Origin: a virus
Lineage: Duplodnaviria; Caudoviricetes
Reading direction: 5' to 3' (one strand)
DNA: 64,000 bases
Virus record (IMG/VR): IMGVR_UViG_3300019776_000220
Coordinates: 216 to 64,215 of that record
In this document: positions 28,419-55,646 of the stretch, in pieces
Layout of the letters: the number at the start of each line of letters is the position of its first letter
Numbering within the stretch: position 1 is the first letter of the stretch
The notes under the pieces: model-generated
The model's input: the letters and a program-made list of their open reading frames with translations, nothing else
Databases searched by the model: none
Told to the model about the DNA's origin: nothing
Translations under genes and position numbers: made by a program

Positions 28419-28826
28419 TTACCCTTCGATTCTTTCTATCGCAAGTCTTCGATGATAATAAATTGGCTCTCCTGCATTAGTAACGTGATATAGTATAGAA
28501 GCCCCATCATTGCTAAATTTACTCATTTGTCGAAGAACAACTACTTCTACTTTTGCAATTCCTCCAAGTAATATAACCCTACTATTAACATACCCCTCTA
28601 TTACAGGGATATATGTTCCATCATTATCTTTGCTTGGCTTCATTATCCAGACCAAGTCTTTGTCTAATATCTTACCTACATCTCCAACTTGAAGCATTGT
28701 TAATGTGACCACACTTGATTTAAATTCTTCTATATTATCAGAAATTTCAGATTGTACATCTTTTGATAATAGCTTTGGGGCTAAACCAAGAAGCCCAAGT
28801 GACATTAAAAATTCTTTCCTTTTCAT
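28419..28826 (-). CDS. hypothetical protein with Tat-like N-terminus
   Basis: MKRKEFLMSLGLLGLAP. Confidence 0.5.
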   Translation of the reverse strand: MKRKEFLMSLGLLGLAPKLLSKDVQSEISDNIEEFKSSVVTLTMLQVGDVGKILDKDLVWIMKPSKDNDGTYIPVIEGYVNSRVILLGGIAKVEVVVLRQMSKFSNDGASILYHVTNAGEPIYYHRRLAIERIEG

Positions 28827-28827
28827 A

Positions 28828-29364
28828 TTATTTCATTTCGATTAAATCTGATTCATAAATTGCGTGGGCAATTGTAGTGGCATTGAATGGCTCTTTATAT
28901 TTGCCAATCAAATCAGTCGCTTTCACAAAGTATGCTTCAAATAATTTAGGTACACTCATCATAACAAAGGCAACTATATCATTCTCAGATGGCTTTGTAA
29001 CAATTTTATCTTCAGTAGAAAATAACCACGATGGCTCTCTGCCATCTACAACAATACAACTTTTAACGTGAATCAATTTATCATCTGATATGATGTCTGC
29101 ATCGTGAGATTTACGATTTCTTTCATAAATCATTATATCAGGAGGAGAAACCTTTTTGTAATTTGGGAAACTTAATAAGGTATTGAATACCGCATATTCA
29201 GACATCTTGCCATTATAAGCCCAATGCTCAAGTTTAGCTATACCTCTTTCCCCCTTTGTTTTATAGTAATCTCTTTGATTGATTGCACTATTCTTTGCGA
29301 ATGTACTGCACAACGTTTCCTGATATAAGTCAGGAGCGATAAGATTTAGTTTCCTTATTTGCAT
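28828..29364 (-). CDS. putative PD-(D/E)XK-fold nuclease-like protein
   Basis: GKMSEYAV...DADII...IHVKS. Confidence 0.45.
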   Translation of the reverse strand: MQIRKLNLIAPDLYQETLCSTFAKNSAINQRDYYKTKGERGIAKLEHWAYNGKMSEYAVFNTLLSFPNYKKVSPPDIMIYERNRKSHDADIISDDKLIHVKSCIVVDGREPSWLFSTEDKIVTKPSENDIVAFVMMSVPKLFEAYFVKATDLIGKYKEPFNATTIAHAIYESDLIEMK

Positions 29365-29737
29365 AGGATAGGATGTGAACTATTAGTAGGTAATTTTTCT
29401 TCCCCATTGTTTCATCAGGGTAAATTTCAATCCCTTTGCAGAATTTCTTAGAGTCATCAACAATGTAATGTGCTTTCTTCATAGTATCCTCAAGGATTTT
29501 AATCATAGGCACGGTATTGCTTGCATCTAATCGACTATTAAAGTATAATGTAATCATATACTTGTCAATCTTTTTTGTTCTCTTAGGGAGCAACTTTAGA
29601 AATAGGTTAGCCCAAAATTCTTTCTCTTTGTTTCTGAATGACCAATGGCGGTTTGCGTACCATTTGTTTAGAGATAAATCTACACCTTCCCATTCTATTG
29701 TAATATGGGCAATCGAATCATCTTTATCAGTTGTCAT
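29330..29737 (-). CDS. RusA-like Holliday junction resolvase
   Basis: SLNKWY...RLDASN...KILEDTM...IVDDS. Confidence 0.7.
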   Translation of the reverse strand: MTTDKDDSIAHITIEWEGVDLSLNKWYANRHWSFRNKEKEFWANLFLKLLPKRTKKIDKYMITLYFNSRLDASNTVPMIKILEDTMKKAHYIVDDSKKFCKGIEIYPDETMGKKNYLLIVHILSYANKETKSYRS

Positions 29738-29927
29738 ATCTTAGTCTTGAGATGAAATCTTCTCGAACTTCTTTCCAATAGCATTCATCAGAAAATTCTT
29801 TGTGTTTACTATTGATAGCTAATTCTTCAAGTAGATACGAGATAACTGCAAGTCTCCCACTATGATAGGAAATCTTCAGTATCTCGTCTACTCTTTCATC
29901 GGGTTTTAAATTAAGCGGATTGTTCAT
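29727..29927 (-). CDS. hypothetical protein
   Basis: 66-aa ORF in a tight operon. Confidence 0.5.
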   Translation of the reverse strand: MNNPLNLKPDERVDEILKISYHSGRLAVISYLLEELAINSKHKEFSDECYWKEVREDFISRLRYDN

Positions 29928-29929
29928 AG

Positions 29930-30163
29930 CTATTTGATTCCTCTCATTACTAATGATTCGGGATATTTATTTGCGAAATCAATGAAATCCGCAATCATTT
30001 TCCTTGTGTATCGGATTGGTCTTGTATCGATATATGCGATATACATATTCTTGCGATACCAAGCTAATACCCGATACGTTACACCAAGCATTGCCCTCAA
30101 CTCCTTGTCGGTGTACAATAGCTTTTCCAATTTCAATTCTTCCATTTCAGATTTTCTTATCAT
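29930..30163 (-). CDS. excisionase/MerR-like HTH protein
   Basis: LLYTDKELRAMLGVTYRVLAWYR...IRYTRKMIADFI. Confidence 0.65.
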   Translation of the reverse strand: MIRKSEMEELKLEKLLYTDKELRAMLGVTYRVLAWYRKNMYIAYIDTRPIRYTRKMIADFIDFANKYPESLVMRGIK

Positions 30164-30371
30164 TGAGTGTAACTGTTATGTCAAGTGAAATCAAATATCC
30201 GTTAGCCGCTAAATTGCATACCATCCTATTCAATAGATTGTATCCAAGTTTTCTTCTTCCTGACTCGTATAGCCAAACCTGTTGGAATGAATTAATCCCG
30301 CAGGCTTTTGCAAAGTCTACTTGAGTCATCCCCAATTCAGTTCTTATTTTTTTTATTAAGTCTTTCTTCAT
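30147..30371 (-). CDS. XRE/Cro-family HTH regulator
   Basis: IKKIRTELGMTQVDFAKACGINSFQQVWLYESGRR. Confidence 0.8.
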   Translation of the reverse strand: MKKDLIKKIRTELGMTQVDFAKACGINSFQQVWLYESGRRKLGYNLLNRMVCNLAANGYLISLDITVTLNDKKI

Positions 30372-30478
30372 ATTCTTTTTCTAATTTGAACTTTAGTTTT
30401 GCTTGCTCAATCTTAATGCGATGAGACAATTCTAATTGATTATGGATATTTGTCCATACTTGATTAAATGCATTCATA

Positions 30479-30949
30479 TTATTTAAGGGTTACACGGATG
30501 GTTGTTGAACTTGATTTGGTTGGAGGAAAGTAATCGAATATCTCTCCTGTATTTGGGTCCACTATGGTAGTCTTTTCTTTACAAGCCTTAGCAAATGTTT
30601 CGATTTCTTTTAGCTTTGCCGTAGCTTCATCAACTACTTTCTTTTGGGCAACCCAAGCAGAAGATGCTGAATAATCATATTTAGCAGGGGTATCTACTTC
30701 TTTTAAGGTAACATCTGATATATTGGCTTCATTATTATCGTAGGTTTTTAATTCGTTCATTGCGAACTCCTTTAATCCTTTCTCTAACTCCTCTAATACG
30801 AAGATGTACTTACGACACAACACTAAATCCTTTAGAGGCTCGCCTCCGCTAAAAGCTATCTCCTCAAGATAGCGATTAACCATCCCAACCATCTCCGACT
30901 TGTTTGCGGAGAAGATTGAGGATTGCTTTAATTGAACTATTTCTGACAT
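30479..30949 (-). CDS. hypothetical protein, recombination module
   Basis: ATG at 30949 (MSEIVQLK...); follows the SSB-like gene. Confidence 0.55.
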   Translation of the reverse strand: MSEIVQLKQSSIFSANKSEMVGMVNRYLEEIAFSGGEPLKDLVLCRKYIFVLEELEKGLKEFAMNELKTYDNNEANISDVTLKEVDTPAKYDYSASSAWVAQKKVVDEATAKLKEIETFAKACKEKTTIVDPNTGEIFDYFPPTKSSSTTIRVTLK

Positions 30950-30950
30950 A

Positions 30951-31661
30951 TTAGAATGGTAAAGGGTTATCTTCTGACTCAAATACAGGCTCCTCAAAAG
31001 CAGGAATTAATGATGGCTCTTGTGATGGAGTCTCATCTTGTGGATTAGAATTGCCTTGTGCCTTACGAGCAACAAAATATGCTTGCAAATCATCGAACAA
31101 TAAATCTCCTAACTTTCCATCAGCAGAAGAAATTTCTCCACCTAATGTGAATACAGGAACTGAATACTTAACCGACCCCTTCTTAGCATCTAATGCTGAT
31201 GGGATTACAATTTCATTGTGTAAGAATTTCTTGAAATTGTCTTTTGTAAATTCAGACCAATGCTGAAGCACAGACCCTTTCATCTCGATGTTAACGATTT
31301 CTCCATCAATCATCCCATAAATACTTGCACTATAGTGTCCGCCTTCCTCAACAACTTTGAGTTTGATATCTTGATAAAGACCGCTTGCAATCTCCCCCTT
31401 ACCTTTGAATGAACGAACAAATAATGGCTCTGTCTTGGTAGATTTAACTTCGTTAGAATAGATAGACGATTGTGTCTTGTCGCTAAAACCTTTGATGGTA
31501 GAATACGAATCAAAGTAAATTAATGTTAAAGGCAATTTAACATCTCTGTCAGTTTTCAAATTCTTGTCGTAGAATGTGAAACATTTTTTGTTAGAAGACC
31601 ATTTTAGGTACTTCTTAACAGGTGTCTCGGCTTTAGCCGAATAAGCATCTGAACGTGCCAT
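30951..31661 (-). CDS. putative ssDNA-binding or annealing protein
   Basis: Acidic disordered tail ending EDNPLPF, typical of SSB C-termini. Confidence 0.5.
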   Translation of the reverse strand: MARSDAYSAKAETPVKKYLKWSSNKKCFTFYDKNLKTDRDVKLPLTLIYFDSYSTIKGFSDKTQSSIYSNEVKSTKTEPLFVRSFKGKGEIASGLYQDIKLKVVEEGGHYSASIYGMIDGEIVNIEMKGSVLQHWSEFTKDNFKKFLHNEIVIPSALDAKKGSVKYSVPVFTLGGEISSADGKLGDLLFDDLQAYFVARKAQGNSNPQDETPSQEPSLIPAFEEPVFESEDNPLPF

Positions 31662-31679
31662 AATTGTTTGGTTTTGGTT

Positions 31680-31850
31680 TTAAAAGTTATTATTAATTTC
31701 AAATTGACTGAGAAACGCAATCTTGTTTGTCAATCGGGTTAGTCTACGCTGAACTGGTCTTTTAAATTGTCCATCTCTACGCAAATTTTTGGGGTCATTT
31801 GCGATAGCCTCCGCCTTGCAGAGCACATCGCTGTAGCTTTTTCTTTTCAT
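31680..31850 (-). CDS. small basic protein (not in ORF track)
   Basis: MKRKSYSDVLCKAEAIANDPKNLRRDGQFKRPVQRRLTRLTNKIAFLSQFEINNNF, directly downstream of a promoter. Confidence 0.5.
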   Translation of the reverse strand: MKRKSYSDVLCKAEAIANDPKNLRRDGQFKRPVQRRLTRLTNKIAFLSQFEINNNF

Positions 31851-31867
31851 TTTGTGTTAATCTGTGA

Positions 31868-31888
31868 GCAAATATAATACAATTATTT
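31868..31888 (-). promoter_or_regulatory. promoter with -7 box TATATTTG; 21 bp identical to 38646-38666
   Basis: + strand GCAAATATAATACAATTATTT at both sites. Confidence 0.7.
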
Positions 31889-31914
31889 TATAAAACAATA
31901 CTTTTAATTAAAAT

Positions 31915-31943
31915 AAAAATACCCCGCAAGGCAGGGTACTTTT
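31915..31943 (-). terminator. intrinsic terminator
   Basis: - strand GTACCCTGC-CTT-GCGGGGTAT-TTTT. Confidence 0.7.
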
Positions 31944-31973
31944 AACTCTCTAAACACAATTATGAAAAAACAA

Positions 31974-32384
31974 TTAATAATGCCAACCTCGTGGTTTCTT
32001 TTCGAGGTCTGTGTAAGTTTCGTTTGGTTTCGGTATAATATTATATACAACTCCTGTGCCAACTCTTGTTCCTGTCAGGGTAGATTCTGATGCTTTTTTT
32101 AATGCATCTTCTTCCAACTTCTCTTGAATCATTTTTTGGGTCTTAAATGCTCTCAACTCCTCCTCCATTGCAAGCATATCTTTCCTTAATCTCTTTAGAT
32201 AGATAGCCATATCTAATGCCTCCTCGTAAGCGTGTTGTACCCAATCAGATGCGATTAGGTCTTCCCTATCCATCGTGGTGTTATACTTCTTTAAACCAAC
32301 CTCTGCTCTGTGAGCAATATCTTTGATTACATCGAACACGATGCTATCAGTAAATGTTGTTATATTCTCGTTATTCGACTCCAT
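31974..32384 (-). CDS. conserved phage helical protein (possibly MazG-like fold)
   Basis: RAEVGLKKYNTTMDREDL...WVQHAYEEALDMAIYL. Confidence 0.55.
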   Translation of the reverse strand: MESNNENITTFTDSIVFDVIKDIAHRAEVGLKKYNTTMDREDLIASDWVQHAYEEALDMAIYLKRLRKDMLAMEEELRAFKTQKMIQEKLEEDALKKASESTLTGTRVGTGVVYNIIPKPNETYTDLEKKPRGWHY

Positions 32385-32724
32385 AAGATTTTAAGATTTC
32401 GGAAACTTTAGTAGCACACTCAATTTTTTTATCATTATCCAACATCTCCATTTTTAATGCGATATCAAATAAGTAATCTGATTGAATCGAAGCGTTAACA
32501 AATTGGTCTAATACTGCACCTTGACTATCCCCGCCTTCAGCTTTCATTAGAATGTCAACTTGTTTTTCAAGTTCAACAACCAAATTATTTGTAATCAATT
32601 TAATTTTTTGGAAATAAAAGTTTGATGCAACAACTTTCTCATCAATAAAATCCCGTAGTGACTGACATTTTGCGTAATAGCAAATCATATCACGCATCTC
32701 TTTGTCATTTAACAATCGCTTCAT
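32371..32724 (-). CDS. hypothetical protein
   Basis: 117 aa with AACCAAAC leader. Confidence 0.6.
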   Translation of the reverse strand: MKRLLNDKEMRDMICYYAKCQSLRDFIDEKVVASNFYFQKIKLITNNLVVELEKQVDILMKAEGGDSQGAVLDQFVNASIQSDYLFDIALKMEMLDNDKKIECATKVSEILKSYGVE

Positions 32725-32776
32725 TTGTGTTTGGTTTTTGAGTCGATTAATCTCTATATTCGGCTCATATGTTTAT

Positions 32777-32977
32777 TTATCTCATTAATGATTCAATTGT
32801 TTCATTGAATCCAACGATAGGAACAATTGCTCCATTAATAGTTTCGAGAGTACCTTCATCATTGCCCCATTGTGTAGCTGAGTTTTGAGTTAATTCTACA
32901 ATGATATCAGAATCAATCCATTGTCTCATAAAATTTCCATCGGAAAGTCTTGTTGTAATCTTTACAAATTTTTTCAT
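32777..32977 (-). CDS. hypothetical protein
   Basis: 66-aa ORF. Confidence 0.5.
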   Translation of the reverse strand: MKKFVKITTRLSDGNFMRQWIDSDIIVELTQNSATQWGNDEGTLETINGAIVPIVGFNETIESLMR

Positions 32978-32999
32978 TATATATATTAAATATGATTTT

Positions 33000-33040
33000 A
33001 AAAAGAGGGATAAGCAGTTCTAATGGTATGCTTACCCCTA
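33000..33040 (-). terminator. terminator-like hairpin downstream of the tRNA-like gene
   Basis: - strand GGGTAAGCA...TGCTTATCCC-TC-TTTTT. Confidence 0.5.
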
Positions 33041-33047
33041 CATTTAG

Positions 33048-33120
33048 AAGCGTGTGAGGGATTCGAACCCCCATTACAAGCAATATCGACTTGCGTTTTT
33101 TCCTTTCAAACTAACACGCT
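33048..33120 (-). tRNA. tRNA-like cloverleaf with non-canonical anticodon loop (nominal anticodon ATA); possible pseudo-tRNA
   Basis: Acceptor AGCGTGT/ACACGCT, D-arm GTTT/AAAC with GG, anticodon stem CAAGT/GCTTG, loop CGATATT, T-arm GGGGG-TTCGAAT-CCCTC; no encoded CCA. Confidence 0.65.
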
Positions 33121-33161
33121 TTCCGCAATTAACCCCTTAATTTGACCTAAAATTACAAAAA

Positions 33162-33413
33162 CTATTTAATTAAGCAATCAATAGTATTAGTTTTTTCTAA
33201 AAATTGCTTAAATATTCTAATTCTATTGTATGAAGCGTGTTTTTCTCTACCAGAATTATGCTTCAATCGGTCTAAAGATGTTGAAACAAATTGAATATCA
33301 TTGTCAATTGTCTCCCCTTCTCTATATCTAAATGGTTTTGGCTCGGTATTTTCTTTTAAATAATTCTCTGCCCAAGCAATTGCTATTGCGTAGTAATCTA
33401 TCTTTTCTTCCAT
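33162..33413 (-). CDS. hypothetical protein
   Basis: 83-aa ORF. Confidence 0.55.
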   Translation of the reverse strand: MEEKIDYYAIAIAWAENYLKENTEPKPFRYREGETIDNDIQFVSTSLDRLKHNSGREKHASYNRIRIFKQFLEKTNTIDCLIK

Positions 33414-33560
33414 AACTTAACCATATAAATAAAATATCCATTAAATCTGATATGGCGAATTGAATGAGTAATTAATTCCCACGGGATATTGCGTGTATAT
33501 TTTTCGCAACGAATAAGATATCCCAGAATATTAATTTCGTATCCAATTAGATTTCTGTAC

Positions 33561-33827
33561 TTATACTTTCGTATCATCTTCTATTTTCTTTTTAAGGGTT
33601 TGGTAGTCGCAATTGCAAATGAATGTAATTCCACCAACGCTTAATTCGCAATATACTTTTGCGGAATTATATGGGTCAGGGTATGGCGAAATCATATCTA
33701 TGCTATAAAAAGTAACAATTTGGACATCGCAAGATTCCAATTCAAATCCGATTCTTAAATCAGATAAAACGTTTGATGTCTCACTCTGTATGAAACATTC
33801 TAATTCAATTCCATTTTTAATTACCAT
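33561..33827 (-). CDS. hypothetical protein
   Basis: 88-aa ORF. Confidence 0.55.
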   Translation of the reverse strand: MVIKNGIELECFIQSETSNVLSDLRIGFELESCDVQIVTFYSIDMISPYPDPYNSAKVYCELSVGGITFICNCDYQTLKKKIEDDTKV

Positions 33828-34035
33828 AGATGTATTTTTTTATTCCTCCTTTGTCCCAGCAAGGATTGCCTGTGGTCCAGCCCGTTTGTCGAATTAGATT
33901 TTCGTTCCAAACAACGATTGTACCATCATTGCATTCGCATCCTGTTTTATTCTTTAAAGGCAGAATTTGTTCTTGCTCGGTACATCCGACAAGTAATAAG
34001 CCCAAGCCTATCAATAGGCTAATCTTTTTCTTCAT
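33817..34035 (-). CDS. small lipoprotein
   Basis: MKKK, hydrophobic core, lipobox LVG-C; mature part has GCECNDG...PCWDKGG. Confidence 0.7.
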   Translation of the reverse strand: MKKKISLLIGLGLLLVGCTEQEQILPLKNKTGCECNDGTIVVWNENLIRQTGWTTGNPCWDKGGIKKYIYGN

Positions 34036-34312
34036 AGTCAGTTCGCATTAAAAAGTTAGAGATAAGTGATTCGTCTGTGATTAAATGCTCGCCATTGGAA
34101 TACATTTTTACATCATCGTATATGACTAATTTAAATCCTTTTACAAATGTAATAAAGTCCCTAAGAATATTTTTTGGGTCCGCAAGCCTTTTATTTACTT
34201 CGTTTTGTTTTTCCATCCCGTGAATGACTCCTCTTTCGTATGCATCAACAACTGCAATGGTTGATTCTGATATAAGGTCATCGATTGGTTCGGTCCTATT
34301 TTTTCTTTCCAT
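34019..34312 (-). CDS. hypothetical protein
   Basis: 97-aa ORF overlapping its neighbours. Confidence 0.55.
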   Translation of the reverse strand: MERKNRTEPIDDLISESTIAVVDAYERGVIHGMEKQNEVNKRLADPKNILRDFITFVKGFKLVIYDDVKMYSNGEHLITDESLISNFLMRTDYEEKD

Positions 34313-35123
34313 TAGTTTCTGGTTGTTTAAACATTAACTCAATTACATCTTGGTAATCTTTACATTCAATTACTTGATACGTTTCATTTTCCTCGTGAAT
34401 CCACACCAAGTAGCATTTACCTATCTTGATATCGGTATTCTTTTCGATAATATACTTGTACAAATTAAGCTGAAGGGAATATGTCTCGTACTCGCATTCT
34501 TCAATGAAAGTAATTGGGAAAGAAAAACGCTTTTTGTAATCAGAATTAAATCTAATTTTGCCATTCGTTTTGTAATCCCAAATCTGATACTCTTGGCTCT
34601 TGTCATTCCAAAATAATCCATCGACCATTCCCGCTACACCATAAGATTCGACTTCGCCTTTCTTATTGTAAATGGGTAGCAGCGGGTCCCCAATTACTAA
34701 TTCAGATGCAATTGGGATTAGGTTTACGGATGCCTCCTCATAGAACTGCTTAAACATACGAACACATTCCTCGTATCGTTCCTTTAGATTCATTGCACCA
34801 TCGCCCGCAAATCTTTCTTCGGGGATTCGATTGTTGTAAGGGAATACCTTATTCTGCCAATAGTTTTCAGCAAAATTATGCAAGAAAGTGCCTTTCATAG
34901 CACTAAAGTCTCGCTTGTAATCCCACTCCTCAAGAACTGCTTCGACTGAACGATTCGTTTTCTTTGCCGTTCCAAATGCCATTTTCTTTGAATCGAAAGC
35001 AGATTTAAATCTACCAAGATAAGATGTGCCACTCGTTAACTCTTGTTCGCCAATGTAATACTTATGTGGTTCATCATAGTATTTGATGTGTTTAAACTTC
35101 GCTAACTCTTTATATATTTCCAT
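34296..35123 (-). CDS. PD-(D/E)XK exonuclease (RecE/lambda-exo-like role)
   Basis: HKYY...TSGT...GTFLH...SELVI...AGMVDGL...IWDYKTN...YSLQLNLY. Confidence 0.8.
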   Translation of the reverse strand: MEIYKELAKFKHIKYYDEPHKYYIGEQELTSGTSYLGRFKSAFDSKKMAFGTAKKTNRSVEAVLEEWDYKRDFSAMKGTFLHNFAENYWQNKVFPYNNRIPEERFAGDGAMNLKERYEECVRMFKQFYEEASVNLIPIASELVIGDPLLPIYNKKGEVESYGVAGMVDGLFWNDKSQEYQIWDYKTNGKIRFNSDYKKRFSFPITFIEECEYETYSLQLNLYKYIIEKNTDIKIGKCYLVWIHEENETYQVIECKDYQDVIELMFKQPETNGKKK

Positions 35124-35328
35124 AAGTTTCTTCGTAGTATTGTTCGGAATTTTTATTTTGTTTTAGCCCTTGATTTACTCGCCCATCATTATAAGCCATC
35201 ATTATCTGTTCTTTCTCCATTGCTTTGGCTTGATTAAATAATTCTTCATAATGAATGGTAAAAATAAATCCATTTCTTTCATTAATTTCTTTTAATAGCC
35301 ACTCTATTGCCGTTTGTTTATTTTCCAT
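35110..35328 (-). CDS. hypothetical protein (KQTAIEWL...QAKAMEKEQI family)
   Basis: 72-aa ORF. Confidence 0.6.
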   Translation of the reverse strand: MENKQTAIEWLLKEINERNGFIFTIHYEELFNQAKAMEKEQIMMAYNDGRVNQGLKQNKNSEQYYEETYGNI

Positions 35329-35521
35329 TGTCTTGTTTGTAAAATGGTAGTTCTTTATGCACTTGAAATATGTTATCGTTTCCCATAAAAGCTAACGTAT
35401 ACCACCATTGAGCTGGTTGGTAATATCTAACCCCATCAATTTCTACCATATTAGAATTCATTCGTAAAAATTCACTAACCTCATCTGAGAGCTTAATGTT
35501 AATCATTGGTTTGTTCTTCAT
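35318..35521 (-). CDS. hypothetical protein
   Basis: 67-aa ORF. Confidence 0.5.
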   Translation of the reverse strand: MKNKPMINIKLSDEVSEFLRMNSNMVEIDGVRYYQPAQWWYTLAFMGNDNIFQVHKELPFYKQDNGK

Positions 35522-35828
35522 TTTCTTGTTGTTTAAAACGTTTCATTAACCAATATGCCATTCTTTTAGCACCTTCATCTAAACCTTCATAATGATTCCT
35601 TTGCATAACAAAATAGTTATGAGCAATACTTTCCGCTTCATCGCATACTTCATCATCACTTGGTAATTCAAAAGGTGTTAGATTAACCATTTTTTTTAAT
35701 GTTTCTCTAACAATATCTTTCCAACATCCCATACAATGTGCCCCATCGCATTCTAAATTTTCGGGCAAAAATGATTTTTGTAATAAAACCATTAATTCAT
35801 TTACTTGTTCTTCTGTGTATAGTTTCAT
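35499..35828 (-). CDS. hypothetical protein
   Basis: 109-aa ORF, MKLYTEEQV start. Confidence 0.55.
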   Translation of the reverse strand: MKLYTEEQVNELMVLLQKSFLPENLECDGAHCMGCWKDIVRETLKKMVNLTPFELPSDDEVCDEAESIAHNYFVMQRNHYEGLDEGAKRMAYWLMKRFKQQENEEQTND

Positions 35829-35835
35829 TGCTTTG

Positions 35836-36201
35836 TTATTTCTTTAGAAAGTTAACTAACCCATCCTTTGCGTGTAAGATAGCATCTGCTCTCTCCTCCA
35901 TCGATTTGATTTGGTCTGCGATTTCTTCTCTATCGAATGAAACATAATACCCTCGTGACGTAGCAATTACGGGAAGAATAGATTCGCTTCGAATGAAATT
36001 TACAATCTTACGCAACTTAACTTCATTGAATCGAATACCCGCACCGATTTTATCTCGATTGCGATTAATAACCGAAACGATTTCGTTTGACTTCATCGGT
36101 TTCTCGTAGGATGCCGTATAAAGAACTCTGATTAATGGCATTATTACGATTACTTCATCGGCAGATAATGACTTTGTGATTGACTCGAAATTTGTTATCA
36201 T
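35836..36201 (-). CDS. winged-helix-like DNA-binding protein
   Basis: EVKLRKIVNFIR...PVIATSRGYY. Confidence 0.55.
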   Translation of the reverse strand: MITNFESITKSLSADEVIVIMPLIRVLYTASYEKPMKSNEIVSVINRNRDKIGAGIRFNEVKLRKIVNFIRSESILPVIATSRGYYVSFDREEIADQIKSMEERADAILHAKDGLVNFLKK

Positions 36202-36218
36202 TGTTTTATTTGTTTGGT

Positions 36219-37652
36219 TTAAAATGGAGAAACTTTTACATCATCAAAATTACTTTTCATTGTCTTGATGACACTATTTTCATAAAGAACTTCGGGGGCA
36301 GAGAATCTAAACAATTCTTCTTCACTATCAGCAACTCGATTTGTCTTCACATCAACGTATCTACCAATGTCTCCGACTTCGCCATCCCTATTCTTTAATA
36401 TAATGAACTTCAACGTGTTGTCCATTGGGGCAACTGCTTGATTGTTTGCCTTTGCATCAACGTACTTGTAGTAGTCATCACGATACAACCCAATTACAAC
36501 GATTGCATCTTGTTCAATGTTACCCGATGAACGCAAATCCGATAGCATAGGCTGACGATTCGTTCTCGACTCAACTGACCTTGACAACTGCGATAGGCAA
36601 ATGATTGGGATGCCCAACTTCCTTGATAGCTTCTGAATCTTATTACTTACTTTAGATACTTGCGTGAAATCATCTTGACCTTTAACTTGGTTATCACTCA
36701 TCAACTGCAAGTAGTCAATTACAATCATATCAATTCCATTCTTGCGAACTTCGGCAGTCATCATCATTGATAAGTAATTGACATCTCTGTTATCGGAATC
36801 GTAAAAGTAAATGGGAAGATTCTTTAACTCTTTTGCGTTAGACCGCTTAATCTTCTCAACATCTTCGGGCTTAATCCGATTAGCTTTTAAGTCAGAGTAA
36901 TTGTATTCGAATGCTTCCGATGAAATGTATCGGTAAATCAGAGACTCCTTTGGCATCTCAAGGGATAGGTACAAACATTTCTTCCCTGATTTAGCACACG
37001 ATTTTGCAAAATCAAGCCCAACGATTGTCTTGCCCATCGAGGGTCTTGCAGATATAATTGACATACCTTCTTGCCAACCACCTAATGCGTAATTTAATTT
37101 ACGACTACCTGTGTCTATCCCGCTAAAAGTTTTCTCGCTTCCAGCGGAGGCTTCCATCTTCTCAATTACTTCATCGTATATCTGCTCAATAGAATAAACT
37201 TCTTTAGATGCGGAGGCATCAACCATATCAGTTAGCCCATTCTCTATTAATGTAGTCATTGTGGAAACTTCTTCCCCTTCCTCAATGGATGATACAAGAC
37301 CGATTGCTAACTCGTAGATTCTTCTCTTATTCTCTAACTCTTTTAACTCGAATGCGACTTGCATATAATCGATAGCACGATTAGGCATTACCGAAAGTAG
37401 TTTAGAACTATTAATTCCTAATTCAGATTCTTTCGATTTAAGAAACCGAAATACATCGAATCGAGTAAAGACACCTTTCGATAAAGATAAGTCAACCATC
37501 GCAAAGAATGATGCCTTAAACAAAGGGTCTGTAAATGATTCGTAAGACGTAACACGAACAACTTCGTTAATAACGTGTGAATTCTCAAGCAAGTAGGCTA
37601 TTAAGTCTTGCTCTAAGATTGTGTCGATAATTTGGGATGATTTTTTTACCAT
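36219..37652 (-). CDS. dnaB: DnaB-like replicative helicase
   Basis: Walker A ARPSMGKT, SLEMP, VIDYLQLM, LSQLSRSVE.R...P.LSDLRSSGNIEQDA, KNRDG. Confidence 0.95.
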   Translation of the reverse strand: MVKKSSQIIDTILEQDLIAYLLENSHVINEVVRVTSYESFTDPLFKASFFAMVDLSLSKGVFTRFDVFRFLKSKESELGINSSKLLSVMPNRAIDYMQVAFELKELENKRRIYELAIGLVSSIEEGEEVSTMTTLIENGLTDMVDASASKEVYSIEQIYDEVIEKMEASAGSEKTFSGIDTGSRKLNYALGGWQEGMSIISARPSMGKTIVGLDFAKSCAKSGKKCLYLSLEMPKESLIYRYISSEAFEYNYSDLKANRIKPEDVEKIKRSNAKELKNLPIYFYDSDNRDVNYLSMMMTAEVRKNGIDMIVIDYLQLMSDNQVKGQDDFTQVSKVSNKIQKLSRKLGIPIICLSQLSRSVESRTNRQPMLSDLRSSGNIEQDAIVVIGLYRDDYYKYVDAKANNQAVAPMDNTLKFIILKNRDGEVGDIGRYVDVKTNRVADSEEELFRFSAPEVLYENSVIKTMKSNFDDVKVSPF

Positions 37653-38347
37653 TGGTCAGGAATTGTAATTTCGTAAGATGTGTTAGTTTGATTTTCTTGT
37701 GGTTTAGGAACTGAATTAGATGTTGGTAATTCATCTTCCCATACCCGATGTGATAAATATCTCTCGGGGTCTTTGCGATACTGCGGGTCAGGTCTTGCAA
37801 TTTTGTAATTAGGGATTGCTAATAGGCAAGCACTCTTATCAGATTCTTTCAGCTTCATCCATTTAGATTTAGCTTTCTCCTTCCCTACCTTCTTGCCATA
37901 CAACTCCCAAAACTCATCAAACCTATCGGGCAATATATTTACTTTATTATTCTCTTTATTATTATCTTTATTATATGGTGATACTATAGTAGCACCCCCC
38001 TGATACTCGGGTAGCACCCCCCCTGATACTATAGTAGCACCCCCCTTCTCTTTAGAATCCTCCTTCATTAGCTTTAAATCCACTAAACGTATCGTTCTAT
38101 TACCCGATTCTCCTATTTTTTTTGATGAAATTTCTCGAACTATAATTTCTTTGTCTTCTAACTCTTTTATCAAGGCTCTAACGTAGGCTAATGATACCCC
38201 TAAAGTTTCTGAAATGTACTGATTAGATGCAAAGCAATACCCCTTCTTATTAGACAAGCTAATGAGAACTCCCACCAATAATTTACCGCTTGAAGACAAC
38301 TCCTTTGACGAAAGAATTTCGCTTGGAATTACTGCGTACCACCTCAT
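37646..38347 (-). CDS. replication initiator (lambda O-like, N-terminal HTH) with internal iterons
   Basis: YAVIP...LSSSGKLL...GYCFASNQYISETLG; central GGATIVS repeat and KDNNKENNK linker; FDEFWELYGKKVGK; upstream of dnaB. Confidence 0.85.
   Translation of the reverse strand: MRWYAVIPSEILSSKELSSSGKLLVGVLISLSNKKGYCFASNQYISETLGVSLAYVRALIKELEDKEIIVREISSKKIGESGNRTIRLVDLKLMKEDSKEKGGATIVSGGVLPEYQGGATIVSPYNKDNNKENNKVNILPDRFDEFWELYGKKVGKEKAKSKWMKLKESDKSACLLAIPNYKIARPDPQYRKDPERYLSHRVWEDELPTSNSVPKPQENQTNTSYEITIPDQW
37932..38045. repeat. putative origin: three 16-bp iterons plus AT-rich tract inside the initiator gene
   Basis: TGATACTATAGTAGCA at 37979 and 38024, variant TGATACTCGGGTAGCA at 38001, separated by C-runs; AT-rich tract 37932-37976. 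Confidence 0.8.
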
Positions 38348-38541
38348 TATACTTCGTTTAGTTTGGCTTCTAAAAACTTAATTTCTTTGTACAAATTCTC
38401 GATAATATCCAATAGCTTATCAAATGCTTCCATCTCGGGAGTAGCGAACTGCATTACATACTCGTATTGCTTCAACTCTATCTCAAAATGTCTTTTCTTT
38501 AACTTAACTACCGCTAAAAATGCTTCTAATTCTAAATCCAT
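38347..38541 (-). CDS. hypothetical coiled-coil protein
   Basis: ATG at 38541 (MDLELEAF...) preferred because the upstream extension is a terminator/hairpin region. Confidence 0.55.
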   Translation of the reverse strand: MDLELEAFLAVVKLKKRHFEIELKQYEYVMQFATPEMEAFDKLLDIIENLYKEIKFLEAKLNEV

Positions 38542-38546
38542 TGTCG

Positions 38547-38640
38547 AAAAAAAAACCCCAAGACCTTCGAGGGAAAGAATCTTGGGGATAGGACACCTCC
38601 TATAGTTTGTCATCTAACCCCTCAATCAGATGACTAACTC
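38547..38640 (-). ncRNA. putative structured leader or small RNA: three hairpins ending in an intrinsic terminator
   Basis: Hairpins at 38609-38634, 38588-38603 and 38556-38587, then a T-run; downstream of the promoter at 38646-38666. Confidence 0.55.
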
Positions 38641-38645
38641 GACTC

Positions 38646-38666
38646 GCAAATATAATACAATTATTT
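38646..38666 (-). promoter_or_regulatory. promoter with -7 box TATATTTG
   Basis: Same 21-mer as 31868-31888. Confidence 0.7.
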
Positions 38667-38954
38667 GATTCTATCACAACTAATTATATTCATTATTGGA
38701 ATACCAATAGTTTTCGTTAACTCTTTTGGATTAGCGAACAACAATGTTCTATAGTCATCCGTAGAATCTAAATAAGTAGCTATAATTTCTTGCGTAGACC
38801 AACCCAATCTATACACAACTCGATACCGATTAGGTTTACCATACTTAACTACAACGAATAAATCCTTTAGGTTAACTCTATGATTCTCAACTGCGTAAAT
38901 CGGCTTAATTATTCCATTCTCTGCCGATATTGTACCAATAATTTTACGTTCCAT
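38661..38954 (-). CDS. hypothetical protein
   Basis: 97-aa ORF. Confidence 0.55.
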   Translation of the reverse strand: MERKIIGTISAENGIIKPIYAVENHRVNLKDLFVVVKYGKPNRYRVVYRLGWSTQEIIATYLDSTDDYRTLLFANPKELTKTIGIPIMNIISCDRIK

Positions 38955-38958
38955 AATT

Positions 38959-39444
38959 TTAATTGTTTTTAAGTGTTAAAAATAAATCGTGAGGATAATC
39001 GTTTGACCATCCATAAAGTTTACCATCTAAATTCCACGCATATACCTCCGTAGAATCAACTCTAAACGCAAGCCATCCGATGATTTGATGACCTTCGATT
39101 GCATCAAAATTTACCCCCGCAATGCGTACGGATTTACTTTCTCTTGTTACGACATCGTACTCCCCCGACTCGTACTCCTTTAATGTGAACTTCTTTAGTT
39201 TACTCATTCTTGAAACCCCCTTCTCAATGTTTTTAAAGGCTCTCTTTCTATCGCTTTGGTATGCTGAAAAGAAACCAAGTTTACTTACCCTAAATGTTAA
39301 TGGCATCTTACATTTCCAGCAAGGTCCAGACACCCGAACTCGTTTACAATTACTTATTCGGATGCCCACCTCTAAAGGATTCTGCTCTGCCGTACACCAC
39401 CCACAAGTGAGACGATGTTGCGTTTGTGCGTTAGTGAACTCCAT
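38959..39444 (-). CDS. hypothetical protein with Zn-ribbon-like N-terminus
   Basis: CGWC...CWKC. Confidence 0.55.
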   Translation of the reverse strand: MEFTNAQTQHRLTCGWCTAEQNPLEVGIRISNCKRVRVSGPCWKCKMPLTFRVSKLGFFSAYQSDRKRAFKNIEKGVSRMSKLKKFTLKEYESGEYDVVTRESKSVRIAGVNFDAIEGHQIIGWLAFRVDSTEVYAWNLDGKLYGWSNDYPHDLFLTLKNN

Positions 39445-39710
39445 TACTTATGAGTGTATACAAGACAACCCGTAGTTTTATCAACATAGGATGTGTCAAA
39501 GTTATCTTCCCACTCAATGTAATTGGAATCAATTGGCAAAACGCTTACGGACCTAAACTTCTCGTATCCAATTACTTTTTCAATTGACTCTGACTTCAAG
39601 GTCGTGTTGAACCAAATGATGATTCCACAAATAAGTAATATAGCTATCGCAATTACTTCAACAACGTGCATTCTATTTCTCATCTTTCTTTTTGTTTTGC
39701 AATCCAACAA
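39444..39710 (-). CDS. membrane-anchored hypothetical protein
   Basis: One TM segment, VIAIAILLICGIIIWF. Confidence 0.5.
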   Translation of the reverse strand: MLDCKTKRKMRNRMHVVEVIAIAILLICGIIIWFNTTLKSESIEKVIGYEKFRSVSVLPIDSNYIEWEDNFDTSYVDKTTGCLVYTHK

Positions 39711-39852
39711 GATGCGATGAATAAATTAACACGAACAAGCACATCAACCCAAAGGCAAATAGGTCGGTCTTAAAATTTGTATCATCTGATACCTCGCATC
39801 CGATAAAATCGAATACAATACTTACAATTGATGCAATCTGAATTGTTTTCAT
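39673..39852 (-). CDS. small membrane protein
   Basis: ATG at 39852 (MKTIQIASIV...) after an AACCAAAC leader; two hydrophobic segments. Confidence 0.45.
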   Translation of the reverse strand: MKTIQIASIVSIVFDFIGCEVSDDTNFKTDLFAFGLMCLFVLIYSSHLVGLQNKKKDEK

Positions 39853-39959
39853 TTTCGTTTGGTTTAATATACAACTATAAAAAAATACGCAAGTGCGACA
39901 AAGATTAGGCATAATGCAAACTCTAATGCATCTCCTAACGTGATTGGTTTTTTGCTCAT

Positions 39960-40214
39960 TTACTTTAGTGAGATTTCTAATTTAACTGATTGTTCCGTGC
40001 CATCTTCGGCATCCTCTACCACAACTGATAATACTCCATCATAATTGAATACGATATCATACACCCTTCCACCCAATTCAAATGTGTACCAAATATTACC
40101 GAAATCGTAGGGAGAGAAAACAACTTCTGCTCTCTCCTCTACCTTATTAATCTTTGCCGATATCTTGGCAACCATCGTGAACGGATTCACATCTACTATC
40201 ATTTTCATATTCAA
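39960..40214 (-). CDS. hypothetical protein
   Basis: About 84-aa ORF. Confidence 0.5.
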   Translation of the reverse strand: MNMKMIVDVNPFTMVAKISAKINKVEERAEVVFSPYDFGNIWYTFELGGRVYDIVFNYDGVLSVVVEDAEDGTEQSVKLEISLK

Positions 40215-40643
40215 TTACTTTATATGGTCTTCTTCAAAAATTACATTCTTAATGTCTTCGTCTCTAAAAATTATGTAATTAGATATGACACCATTGATTA
40301 GCAAATCTTCAGCTATCGCATCCGCAAATGGATTGGGCAATTTAATATGCTTGCAACCCTTACGGATAATCTTAACCCTATCGTTAATATATATATCATT
40401 GATATACACGTTAACCCATTCGGGCAAACACATATTCTGATTGGATAGATTATACCAATAGTAATAACCTTCTTCGCTTAAATCAAATATGAACCCTCCT
40501 GATAAGAACATCTTTATAGAAAAACATTCTTGCTTGAGGAAATCCTCGAAACTCGGCTTATCGTTCTGCCGTAGGTATTCTGCTTTGTATTTGTCTTGTT
40601 GGTCAAATGATAGCAACTCAAAATAATCTTTTCTTGTAGGCAT
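40215..40643 (-). CDS. hypothetical protein sharing a domain with 40674..41105
   Basis: SFEDFL...SIKMFLSGGFIF..SEEGYYYW. Confidence 0.6.
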   Translation of the reverse strand: MPTRKDYFELLSFDQQDKYKAEYLRQNDKPSFEDFLKQECFSIKMFLSGGFIFDLSEEGYYYWYNLSNQNMCLPEWVNVYINDIYINDRVKIIRKGCKHIKLPNPFADAIAEDLLINGVISNYIIFRDEDIKNVIFEEDHIK

Positions 40644-40673
40644 AATATTGTTTGGTTAAAATGTAATTGAATG

Positions 40674-41310: not shown

Positions 41311-41321
41311 TGTGTTTTTAT

Positions 41322-41561: not shown

Positions 41562-41584
41562 TGTGTTTTTTATTTAAATTGTGA

Positions 41585-41827: not shown

Positions 41828-41973
41828 TATTCTTCTTCTGATTGAGACTTCCAATAAAATGCTACATTGACTAACATCGTGACTAATTCAGATTCATCTA
41901 AACGAACTAAATCATTTGCATCGTACTCATCCCCCAATAAATCTTCGAGGGCATCGATTAATTGCTTTCTCAT
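41827..41973 (-). CDS. small acidic protein (not in ORF track)
   Basis: MRKQLIDALEDLLGDEYDANDLVRLDESELVTMLVNVAFYWKSQSEEE, TAATG-coupled. Confidence 0.5.
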   Translation of the reverse strand: MRKQLIDALEDLLGDEYDANDLVRLDESELVTMLVNVAFYWKSQSEEE

Positions 41974-41981
41974 AATTGCTA

Positions 41982-42407
41982 TTATTTAAATTGTGAAACT
42001 CCTATAAATCTAATTGAGACATTATCGTATCCAGCATTAGCACCCACAATCTCACATATATCCTCCCAAGTATGGGATTTCTCGAAATCATCTGCATACA
42101 AGGATAGAACTCCTTTGACTTCATCAAACTCTCCATTAGATTCATCTTCATCTAAATCAGGCATAAAATCCTCGAACATCTCATAGCACTCCTCATACAC
42201 CTCTATCTTTTCATTAATAGATAGGTTATTCCATTCTTCACGCAATGCATCTAAATACTCTTGGAACTTCTCCTCTGACATTGTTGTCGCTTCGTGAACG
42301 ACATCTTCAAAGTGAATACGACTTAACGCTACAAATGGCATACATCCGTACCATTCGTTCAACTGCACATCGATAGCAGTTATTTGGTCTGAAATTGATT
42401 TTTTCAT
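41982..42407 (-). CDS. very acidic early protein
   Basis: ATG at 42407 (MKKSISDQ...) after AACCAAAC and AAACACA leaders; D/E-rich. Confidence 0.6.
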   Translation of the reverse strand: MKKSISDQITAIDVQLNEWYGCMPFVALSRIHFEDVVHEATTMSEEKFQEYLDALREEWNNLSINEKIEVYEECYEMFEDFMPDLDEDESNGEFDEVKGVLSLYADDFEKSHTWEDICEIVGANAGYDNVSIRFIGVSQFK

Positions 42408-42829: not shown

Positions 42830-42848
42830 CTGATTTGATTAGGGATTG

Positions 42849-43748: not shown

Positions 43749-45482
43749 TTACAAATTGTTTACTGATTCTTCTATTCTTGAGAAATCAAAATTTCTGAAA
43801 TCGTTATCGAATCGTTTACATAATTGGATAGCATCCAAGATTCTCTGCTTGATTTTGCTTGGGCTAAATTCCTTTAGCATATGCTTGTACAAATCAGATT
43901 CCTTGTTGCACAAATCATTCGCCACATCAGGAAAACGATTTGTTGGATTCATTGCAATGATGCGAAGTAAATCAATTCGCCATTGTAATTGGTCAATGTT
44001 TTTAACCAATGGAAAGATGCGGAATTCAATGCGAGGATTCACAATGTCTTCAATGATTCGTACTGCTTGCATCTTCTCCGTAGAATTTTTCATTTGCGAT
44101 TTCTCTTTCGCAATTGAGTAATACGTTTCTGAACGTTTACGATAGATGGCATAGATGAATGGCATATAACCACTAACCATTTCGAATGTATCTTTAGCAG
44201 ATGTATAGCTTCTGCTGAAATGGATATGCCCTCCGCAAGATGAATTATCCTTGTCGGATGAAATCAATGTATGGTCATTTCCATTGATTAACTCAGGGAA
44301 TGCTTGCTCAATCTCTTTTGCCTCATTGATTAGGTCATCAGTGAACAATGGATAACAAGGACTAACTAATTCGTATCCGATTGTGCCACATAAACTGCCA
44401 TCACGTTCTTTCTTCCATCCAAATTGCTGACCAATTGCAACATTCGAATGCTTACTGCCAAAGTAAGATTGTTTCTCGATTTCTACTCCAACTTTGAAGA
44501 CAACTTTCTGCTCCATCTGAATCTGCTTTGCTTGGAAATCTCTTGAATGATATTCATATCTTGGATTACGATGATTTCTTCTTGCACAAGCATTTGTGTC
44601 GTGAATTCCGAATTCGTATTCGTGTCCACAAGATGGACAAGCTACATTGTTGGAAACGTATCCCTCTTGCTCTGCTGAATTAGAATCGAAATACACATAA
44701 TTATTGTGATTGATTCCTCGATATGTAATGTTACGATGTGATGTACCATCAGAAAGAAACAACATATATTGCTCTCCTCGAATCATTCGATATTGGAATC
44801 TATCCGCATAGATTTTGTGGCAAATTCCATCAACAATAAACAATGTCATTGGATGCGAATCTGATTTGACAATCATTCGATTTCCCAATGAACAATGAAC
44901 GACATTATCCGCATCATTTTTGTAGTAACTAATGCGGAAAACTCTTGATGGACATTGTTCCATAAACGTTCTTTGTCTCGATTCAATTACTTTATCTGCA
45001 ATTGTAGAATGATATGCAGAATACCTTTCGATTAGTTTTCTTTTGCCATCCTTGATTACGATAAACGAATTCGAATACATATGCTTGTCAGTTACTTTCA
45101 AATCTAACCATCTATCCGCTGACAATGAGAAGATATAGCCCGCATCAAATGCTTGTTGTTCACTTATAAAGTACAATTGCTTGTTGTCGTATAGAATTGT
45201 GAACGTTTTATCCAATGAGATATTGGCAATGTAGGTATTGCCCTCATTTCTTGGATTACGATGATATCGTACACAATCAGATTTTAAAAACCAAGCCCTC
45301 TGCCAAACATTCTCATCGTTATTGAAGAAATAGGCAGATGTGACCTTTTTAAATTCGTTTGAATTACGATTGAATCTAATTGCATCCCTCGAAATGAATG
45401 CAGAATCGCCATAAGATGAATGCATTTGAGATGCATCGTACATTGGAATTGATTGACCGAAAATTGAAGTTACGTTTGACAT
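43749..45482 (-). CDS. putative amidoligase (COOH-NH2 ligase) with a long unknown N-terminal region
   Basis: C-terminal VGVEIE...ERDGSL...YELVSP...SCGGHIHFS...IEFRIF; adjacent to the GATase. Confidence 0.8.
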   Translation of the reverse strand: MSNVTSIFGQSIPMYDASQMHSSYGDSAFISRDAIRFNRNSNEFKKVTSAYFFNNDENVWQRAWFLKSDCVRYHRNPRNEGNTYIANISLDKTFTILYDNKQLYFISEQQAFDAGYIFSLSADRWLDLKVTDKHMYSNSFIVIKDGKRKLIERYSAYHSTIADKVIESRQRTFMEQCPSRVFRISYYKNDADNVVHCSLGNRMIVKSDSHPMTLFIVDGICHKIYADRFQYRMIRGEQYMLFLSDGTSHRNITYRGINHNNYVYFDSNSAEQEGYVSNNVACPSCGHEYEFGIHDTNACARRNHRNPRYEYHSRDFQAKQIQMEQKVVFKVGVEIEKQSYFGSKHSNVAIGQQFGWKKERDGSLCGTIGYELVSPCYPLFTDDLINEAKEIEQAFPELINGNDHTLISSDKDNSSCGGHIHFSRSYTSAKDTFEMVSGYMPFIYAIYRKRSETYYSIAKEKSQMKNSTEKMQAVRIIEDIVNPRIEFRIFPLVKNIDQLQWRIDLLRIIAMNPTNRFPDVANDLCNKESDLYKHMLKEFSPSKIKQRILDAIQLCKRFDNDFRNFDFSRIEESVNNL

Positions 45483-45521
45483 AATTGTGTTTGTTTAAAT
45501 GTTGTTAAAAATGTGATTGAA

Positions 45522-45683
45522 TCAGTTTTCTTTTTGACCTATAAAAATTGTAATTGCACTAATGCCGACATAGGCAATAACGCAGAAAATAGCTTCGGCA
45601 AATCCACTATGCTTTGCACAAAAGATTGCCATTGGAAGTAATCCTTGAATGATTACCATTGGGAGAATGAATTGTTTTTTCAT
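45522..45683 (-). CDS. small two-TM membrane protein, first gene of the early arm
   Basis: ATG at 45683 after AAACACA leader (MKKQFILPMVII...). Confidence 0.55.
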   Translation of the reverse strand: MKKQFILPMVIIQGLLPMAIFCAKHSGFAEAIFCVIAYVGISAITIFIGQKEN

Positions 45684-46399
45684 TGTGTTTGTGTTTAAAT
45701 TGTTTTTTATGATTGAATTAGATTTTTGTGAGCATAACGGATTAGCATCTAAATAGCTGATTTTCAATGAGTTACGCTTTTTCATATGTTGTTCTATTTT
45801 GCCCACATTCGAAGTTAATACAATAGTTTTAATTTACAATACATAGGGCAAAAAAAATTATGCTTTGAATGTAATCTGATTGGATAGATTTTCTCTTAGC
45901 AGATTTCCCTTGAAAAAAAATATGTGTATCAGAATCGAAATGTAATTGAATCAGAATGTAATTGAATGCCTACATTTTGTTTTATGTTCTATGTCTTGGC
46001 GGATTGTTCGCTTTCCTTATTGATACGATTGGAAAAATATAAAATGAATAAGAAAAGTAATTGGATGATGCGACAAATATATGTTGGAACATATTTTATG
46101 TGGAAAAAGTAATCTGATTGGGCAGAAATTAGGATTTTGAAATCTGATTTGACTATGTACCCGATGCAAAAAACCGATTTCGCAAAATTTTGGTTGAGGG
46201 CTGGGTTAATATATATAACCCTTCGTCTATAACCCTACGCTTAAAAAATAATACACTTACCGCACAAACTCTGCTACGCAAGGATTAAGCCTCCGCATTT
46301 GGCATCTGTTGCAACATAACCTATGCTACCATATGATACTATCATTTAAGATAAAATCGTTGCTTACGTCAAGTATTATGAAAATTGGATATGATTCTA

Positions 46400-55573: not shown

Positions 55574-55646
55574 ATCCGACAACAGGATTGATTGTTTGGT
55601 TTCGGTTAATTAGAGGAGGTCGCATATTGTGACCTCTTTCTTTTTT
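55573..55646 (+). ncRNA. candidate 3'-UTR small RNA: 5' hairpin, anti-leader seed ATTGTTTGGTTT, intrinsic terminator
   Basis: AATCC-GACAACA-GGATT hairpin; seed at 55591-55602; terminator GAGGTCGC-ATATT-GTGACCTC plus T-run at 55612-55646. Confidence 0.4.

Follow-up and report, generated by a model that had tools for sequence, protein, structure and literature searches.

Base-pairing small RNAs (sRNAs) that derive from the 3' untranslated regions (UTRs) of mRNAs are known from enterobacteria, with CpxQ, SroC, and DapZ as examples. Among phages, the T4 proteins RegA and RegB shut off the translation of early genes at the start region, and the c4 RNA of P1 and P7 is a structured antisense RNA that is processed from the 5' part of the operon whose ribosome-binding sites it masks. 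To our knowledge, the phylum Bacteroidota has no Hfq. An sRNA of Bacteroides thetaiotaomicron, GibS, is described as using an extended seed that pairs over start codons to bring about repression, and for the same species 21 sRNA candidates derived from UTRs are reported (PMC7366714). Translation initiation in F. johnsoniae is described as being tuned by mRNA structure and by upstream nucleotides (PMC6847099). The R1 seed of GcvB is given as 88% G/U and as targeting C/A-rich translational enhancers (PMC7769764). According to the account of Staphylococcus aureus icaR, a 3'-UTR motif pairs with the ribosome-binding region of the mRNA, blocks initiation, and makes a substrate for RNase III (PMC3868564). 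Furthermore, the start-associated sequence (SAS) of Cluster K mycobacteriophages is a phage-specific conserved box found immediately upstream of many starts in the non-structural half; copies in the opposite orientation are rare, and the passages that mention a single complementary-strand site in three genomes leave it uninterpreted (PMC3203893).

The locus described here lies in the window, by which we mean the whole 64,000-nucleotide stretch of DNA analyzed, nearly the entire 64,215-bp IMG/VR virus record of an uncultured phage. In a comparison with the phage collection, nucleotide matches were confined to weak ones with Flavobacterium phages. The G+C content of the genome (33-42%), the TAnnTTTG promoters present in the window, and the A/C-rich leaders without Shine-Dalgarno (SD) sequences are all typical of Bacteroidota. 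Leftward genes span positions 28419-45806. Counted from the 46-kb end, they encode a small membrane peptide, a 577-amino-acid (aa) protein, and a class-II glutamine amidotransferase. A terminator (42831-42802) comes next, and beyond it are many small genes and then those for a replication initiator, a DnaB-type helicase, and a PD-(D/E)XK nuclease, with a 136-aa gene after them. The labels "early" and "middle" for these genes are ones that we infer from gene order only. Early genes have in common a longer leader cassette, ACAATTTAAAYA (at 41582, 41994, and 45703, and also 45500; minus strand), with ACACAAT(TA)TG following 3-8 nt later, and the relatives G001, G002, and G006 have it likewise. 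Two long non-coding stretches (42640-42740 and 45850-46160, minus strand) contain direct repeats, namely two copies of ccactatcatcattagcta and several ccaatcagattac-like units, which may be iterons or operator sites. The 2856-aa protein encoded at 18050-26620 (plus strand) has a sub-threshold match to ART-PolyVal (30.3 bits versus a cutoff of 31.2) and another sub-threshold match, to DUF3990 (residues 1540-1638). At gathering score, Rfam matched only a tRNA, at 33047-33120 on the minus strand (45 bits); ARAGORN calls this gene tRNA-Tyr with the anticodon ATA, in which the A at position 34 is unusual. Weak matches to GcvB (RF00022; 20.9 bits by cmscan versus a gathering score of 42, with 97 model positions skipped, the R1 region among them) and to the rteR sRNA (RF04181; 20.4 bits versus a gathering score of 72) are at chance level and were rejected.

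The 136-aa gene (31974..32384, minus strand) is the last gene of the replication block. Its C-terminal W-H-x-stop is conserved in the alignment; it has no Pfam family, and its PHROG matches are to families of unknown function. Within its 3' UTR lies a 24-mer, 5'-AAUUGUUUUUUCAUAAUUGUGUUU-3' (31952..31975, minus strand), that is the reverse complement of a typical early-gene start and that we call the anti-start (anti-TIR) element. The minus-strand transcript at 31975..31952 reads AATTGTTTTTTCATAATTGTGTTT. It is 82% G/U over UUGUUUUUUCAUAAUUGUGUUU, and it contains a CAU at 31964..31962 that mirrors AUG and a conserved core, UUUUUCAUAAU, at 31969..31959. With up to 3 mismatches allowed, the full 24-mer has no match but itself. 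The 5' end of the element falls within the TAA stop codon (31976..31974) of the 136-aa gene, and the RNA between that codon and the terminator hairpin is UUGUUUUUUCAUAAUUGUGUUUAGAGAGU. As the sequence-only reading had claimed, the element is placed just before a terminator: its 3' end is 8 nt ahead of an intrinsic terminator hairpin (31944..31914, minus strand; 14 pairs, then a U-tract to about 31905; z, -3.84) that has the top score of 13 sites in the region and in which, across 10 lineages, 7 of 11 pairs have had both partners replaced without loss of pairing. The next operon has a Bacteroidota-type promoter (TTG..N..TAnnTTTG; 31869..31898, minus strand), whose twin at 38647-38679 (minus strand) has 24 nt in common with it (AATAATTGTATTATATTTG core). 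The word TTGTATTA occurs more often than it should by chance (14 copies versus 6.5 expected). We tentatively interpret 31952..31975 as a conserved G/U-rich anti-start element in the 3' UTR of the last replication-block gene that would block early starts by RNA pairing, and we give this interpretation a little less than an even chance of being correct. A keyword search of the open-access literature returned no description of such an element for Flavobacterium or other Bacteroidota phages.

The exact matches that had first drawn attention to the element were reproduced. It is complementary over 14 nt to the start of the first early gene (45683..45670, the ATG plus 11 nt) and over 13 nt to the start of the 577-aa gene (45480..45492, minus strand), although the energy of the latter duplex is ordinary (-16.5 kcal/mol). 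The 9-mer AAACACAAT is present in six copies in the window, five of which are on the minus strand at starts (45690, 45492, 42414, 41568, and 41317), the sixth being the inverted copy in the anti-start element. Enrichment of matches at starts is not independent evidence, and was counted against the pairing interpretation, because any sequence that mirrors the start consensus matches starts. The sequence-only reading had itself cautioned that A/T-rich sequence makes coincidental matches more likely. A lone inverted match of 13-14 nt is uninformative, because the window holds 98 exact inverted pairs of at least 13 nt; a targeted test was significant. In that test, the 32-nt UTR was compared with 81 start regions, and 300 dinucleotide shuffles of the UTR served as the control. 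The best energy, -26.8 kcal/mol with the start at 41973, was matched by 0/300 shuffles (mean, -16.9; standard deviation, 1.9), and the top-5 mean was likewise matched by 0/300. The comparison of pairing energies with shuffles that had been suggested as a check is thus favorable for the window UTR.

The list of partners proposed earlier holds up only in part. The energies for the proposed partners at 41561 (-16.4) and 42407 (-15.9), like that for 45482 (-16.5), are at the shuffle mean, and 41310 is outside the 8 best. Only the 45683 start (-23.7) of the listed partners for which energies are given stands apart from the shuffle mean, and the best partner, the 41973 start of a 48-aa gene, was missing from the list. 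When the UTR alone was scanned against 5310 sense-strand windows, the 41973 start scored -27.1 (z, -7.1) and the 45683 start -24.6 kcal/mol (z, -6.1), with the next site at -20.3; only these two starts are outliers within the window. The best predicted target, at 41945..41995 (minus strand), is the leader plus the first 10 codons of the 48-aa gene (ATG at 41973, coding 41973..41830), and the second, at 45670..45696 (minus strand), is the leader and start of the first early gene, which encodes a 53-aa membrane peptide (ATG at 45683). Pfam and PHROGs gave no function for the target genes. At the 41973 start, CAAUUAUGAGAAAGCAAUUAAU and AUUAAUUGUUUUUUCAUAAUUG form a predicted 22-bp continuous helix with two G.U pairs that uses 31978..31957. 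If 30 nt of coding sequence are added to the UTR, the duplex lengthens to about 45 nt and -41.7 kcal/mol (z, -7.2 of 4243 windows; next, -30.0). The full arm of this long duplex (31945..31992, minus strand) runs from the final codons of the 136-aa gene (CGAGG..GGCAU) across its stop codon and through the UTR, and its coding-side extension alone scores -20.3 with the 41973 start (2nd of 81 starts). Two properties of the RNA were counted against pairing: the seed of the element has only moderate accessibility (about 0.2-0.8 in unpaired probability), and the UTR is able to fold into a weak A/U hairpin of its own.

The 11-nt core TTTTTCATAAT is present in 11/43 relatives, which comprise 4/11 IMG/VR relatives (L003, L006, L007, and L011) and 7/32 metagenome relatives (L074, L077, L080, L081, L088, L094, and L098; some of the metagenome loci are duplicates of IMG/VR records). 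The search for relatives kept the best 80 of 482. Nine non-duplicate sequences have an identical core with flanking 12-nt bins that are 28-47% identical, a contrast that is inflated, as is the apparent conservation of the core, by the use of an exact match to the core as the anchor. At its four-fold degenerate sites, the upstream gene has an identity to the window of only 38-71%. On this comparison, an 11-nt stretch would not survive neutral drift unchanged in nine non-duplicate sequences whose flanks have diverged. The core would accordingly provide the conserved seed of a 3'-UTR-derived base-pairing sRNA, with an accessibility that is only moderate. The exact core is absent from 32/43 relatives, which was counted against the pairing interpretation; these relatives have other UTR types, most of which are again G/U-rich with leader-mirroring words (e.g., GTTTAATTGT, GATTTGTTTTG, and TTTTTTTGTTTAAAA).

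The conservation of the core could also have a cause other than pairing, with the likeness to a start being secondary: the core might be a site for a protein or an RNase on the RNA, a regulator site on the DNA, or the plus-strand start of a tiny ORF or an antisense transcript. We consider this unlikely, but it has several observations in its favor. The 11-nt core is the most conserved part, whereas the leader-mirroring part varies; the relative G004 keeps the core without a strong partner; and CAYAATTRTG, read from the sequence, is nearly palindromic. On the plus strand, AAACACAATT followed by ATG AAAAAA resembles a start site, and with a matrix derived from the 78 called starts, the ATG at 31962 ranks 43rd of 2453 ATGs and is the sole non-coding-strand site among the top 45. 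It had been pointed out earlier that the segment might simply be the start of an expressed ORF on this strand. The ORF (31962..32090) has 42 codons in the window, but its counterparts in seven relatives have 11 (L003), 19 (L004), 19 (L005), 20 (L008), 25 (L006), 5 (L007), and 20 (L011) codons, the frame is shifted in L006, and there is no common peptide beyond MK(K/N). A plus-strand gene at 31962 was rejected because neither length (5-42 codons) nor frame nor peptide is conserved, and no TAnnTTTG promoter was seen upstream on the plus strand, either in a scan or by eye. On the minus strand, no TAnnTTTG promoter was found inside the 3' end of the 136-aa gene; the sole nearby match, a sigma-70-like TTGGCA-16-CATAAT that would speak for another cause, was rejected because its spacing is 15-21 nt in relatives, because it is not of the Bacteroidota promoter type, and because it would fire straight into the terminator. 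Finally, any of these causes would leave unexplained the long complements specific to individual lineages (the window, G003, and L106).

These complements emerge when each UTR is compared with the starts of its own genome. An anti-leader 7-mer score, computed for the UTR against the start-region 7-mers of each genome and compared with 1000 dinucleotide shuffles, has p<0.05 in 6/8 genomes: the shuffles scoring at least as high number 15 in the window, 2 in G001, 19 in G002, 0 in G004, 43 in G005, and 12 in G008, while G003 (113) and G007 (115) miss. When all 30-nt sense windows are ranked, the 31.9-kb UTR is second in the window, first in G003, and third in G004, and it is outside the top 8 in G001, G002, G005, G007, and G008. 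The mirror property thus appears, in part, to travel with the lineage even where the UTR sequence differs. Pairing energies against a genome's own starts beat shuffles in G001 (top-3, 0/80), G003 (0/80), G005 (1/80), and G002 (3/80 by the top-3 measure); they are no better than shuffles in 3/8 genomes (G004, 37/80; G007, 53/80; and G008, 49/80). Ungapped scores are not significant in G001, G004, G007, G008, and G009, and G004 retains the core, yet no real start of it carries ATTATGAAAAA. The earlier proposal of a terminator-stabilized RNA that silences a whole class of early mRNAs is therefore borne out insofar as the pairing in the window beats shuffles, but not in its breadth: only the 41973 and 45683 starts are outliers, and in three genomes the pairing energies are no better than those of shuffles.

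The UTR of G003, which has a different sequence, is exactly complementary over 19 nt to the leader of the first early gene, 12.7 kb upstream, and over 16 nt to that of a 248-aa gene, 11.9 kb upstream; among the inverted repeats of that genome, the two rank 2nd and 4th in length. Of 1358 windows in L106, the best match (z, -5.7) falls on the leader of the early amidotransferase (GATase) gene, which lies 9.9 kb upstream; in its sibling L104, 0/4 top matches are at a start. In L090, a 77-aa ORF starts at the site of the top match (z, -5.3). For the 48-aa target, orthologues were found only in G001, in G002, and, weakly, in G005, with none in G003, G004, or G006-G010. With a long query (the UTR plus 30 nt of coding sequence), the top match in G002 is the orthologous 48-aa start (z, -5.2), which is outside the top 5 when the UTR alone is used; in G001, the orthologous start is outside the 11 best-scoring distinct sites with the long query. 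Because long-query scans are dominated by G+C-rich chance matches in G001, G004, and G005, they were repeated with the UTR alone and with an ungapped score. Covariation in related phages, another check suggested at the outset, is thin: there is one compensatory change, CAATTAAT/ATTAATTG in the window versus CTATTAAT/ATTAATAG in G002, and it is offset by G001, in which the UTR has changed without a change in the target. In G001 (L043), the longest inverted repeats (46237-46311 and 56512-56619; up to 39 nt) consist of C-rich TACCCCGCTATCACCCCCC-type units and are separated by about 10.3 kb. In G008 (L064-L067), two more intergenic windows, near 65716 (plus strand) and 30364 (minus strand), mirror starts (TTTTTTCATTTTGTTTAGGG and CCATTTTAATATTTGTTTAAGGGG); they may be more anti-start elements or else real starts of small opposite-strand genes missed by crude gene calling.

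A second element of the same design follows a 271-aa late gene on the plus strand (55574..55639). It consists of a small hairpin (55574-55588), an anti-leader, AUUGUUUGGUUU (55591-55602; 92% G/U over GAUUGUUUGGUUU), and a terminator (55613-55639). What the anti-leader mirrors is the AACCAAAC leader class, to which the leader of the 271-aa gene itself belongs, and 10/14 occurrences of the AACCAAAC word in the window are real leaders. The second element is kept in 8/8 genomes and is always complementary to its own gene's leader over 10-12 nt, so that a motif complementary to its own start region, as in icaR, is present here at the sequence level. In the ranking of 30-nt sense windows, it is fifth in the window, second in G003, first in G005, third in G007, and seventh in G004, and both elements are among the 5 highest-scoring distinct sites in a scan of 12796 windows. 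Its energy test is weaker (best, 23/300; top-5, 2/300). Because terminators lie on either side of it (54700-54717 and 55613-55639), the 271-aa gene is probably monocistronic. Such an element is not a feature of all terminators; the one at 42831 lacks it.

The second element bears on an alternative that we regard as distinctly improbable for the first one, namely, that the 31.9-kb element pairs within its own transcript, either (i) by icaR-type pairing of the 3' UTR with a start or (ii) by masking the next start (31850) on a read-through RNA. For the former, there is the reported precedent of icaR, where such pairing within one mRNA blocks initiation and feeds RNase III (PMC3868564), and the second element, with its probably monocistronic gene, has the corresponding arrangement. 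Moreover, the starts at 41973, 42407, 41561, and 41310 lie in a leftward unit that may end at the 31.9-kb terminator. However, weak terminator-like sites (39132 and 38572) and a promoter at 38679 are situated between 42.4 kb and 31.9 kb, and 45683 belongs to a different unit, which ends at the terminator at 42831-42802. For the latter, the 31850 start pairs at -15.3 with the UTR alone and at -23.7 with the extended arm; the pairing with the UTR is ordinary (8th of 81), and read-through masking of the next gene was rejected. In G003, the leader of the next gene has no match evident by eye, whereas a distant leader matches over 19 nt.

It is quite improbable that the element has no function at all and is left over from an inverted gene start or resembles one by chance in A/T-rich DNA. 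Inverted pairs are admittedly plentiful in the window, and phage genomes are mosaics in which the UTR-terminator-promoter block may be exchanged in one piece (it is nearly identical in the window and L006, whose upstream proteins are 78% identical). However, nine non-duplicate sequences keep an identical core between flanks that have diverged, no shuffle matches the pairing in the window, and the same design occurs twice in the genome, both times among the highest-scoring sites.

According to the pairing interpretation that we favor, a polymerase that reaches the end of the long leftward unit would produce an RNA carrying a stretch able to pair with start regions that were transcribed 10-14 kb earlier and that are A/C-rich and SD-less. 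The active form could be the 3' end of the mRNA itself or a fragment protected by the terminator, and its main partners would be the starts at 41973 (the 48-aa gene) and 45683 (the first early gene). The predicted pairing covers the AUG and its flanks; translation would be blocked because these must stay unstructured for initiation in Bacteroidia, and the 22-bp helix could also be a substrate for RNase III. The existence of the RNA as a stable species, its pairing in vivo, the timing, and the repression are what we infer from the sequence, the complementarity beyond shuffles, the conservation, and the absence of a conserved ORF.

A wider and more speculative generalization, which we consider unlikely, is that SD-less Bacteroidota phages use a distance-delayed RNA feedback. 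Each long transcription unit would end in a terminator-protected, G/U-rich mirror of earlier starts, and two such RNAs would operate here, one from the replication block against early starts and one from the late gene against the AACCAAAC class. The result would be a cascade without a protein repressor, in which 10-14 kb of transcription serve as the delay. If the pairing is real, the element would be an RNA-only counterpart of the protein-based early shut-off of T4 by RegA and RegB. It would operate in a phylum whose ribosomes ignore SD sequences and rely on open A/C-rich leaders, the regulator and its targets could be read directly from the genome sequence, and the conservation of phage 3' UTRs beside terminators would be explained.

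Like the 3'-UTR-derived sRNAs, the anti-start element is a single-stranded conserved stretch directly upstream of the parental terminator with complementarity to the starts of other mRNAs. It differs from them in being a phage-encoded candidate that would be aimed at the phage's own genes, and its predicted main duplex (22 bp and up to about 45 nt) is far longer than the usual seed. With T4 RegA and RegB it would have in common a phage-encoded shut-off of early-gene translation at the start region, but those are proteins. The c4 RNA of P1 and P7 likewise comes from the same operon whose ribosome-binding sites it masks, but it is structured and 5' derived. The likeness to GibS, as that sRNA is described, lies in a Bacteroidota setting without SD sequences and in an extended A/U-rich seed that pairs across the start codon and represses; GibS, however, is an intergenic host-gene RNA that bears its seed in the 5' portion, and the two are unrelated in sequence (PMC7366714). 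The R1 seed of GcvB, in the account cited, resembles both elements (82% and 92% G/U) as a G/U-rich seed directed against C/A-rich leader elements common to many mRNAs (PMC7769764). The SAS is similarly a start-associated phage box with rare inverted copies, but it has an SD core, GGGATAGGAGCCC, its function is given as unknown in the passages on the box, and it has no sequence relation to the element (PMC3203893). The icaR 3' UTR, as reported, is likewise a mirror of a start region, and the second element, which mirrors its own gene's leader, is like it in this respect as well; the icaR motif, however, is an anti-SD UCCCCUG in the long 3' UTR of a monocistronic host mRNA (PMC3868564), whereas the mirror described here is that of an SD-less start region, and the partners of the 31.9-kb element are 10-14 kb away.
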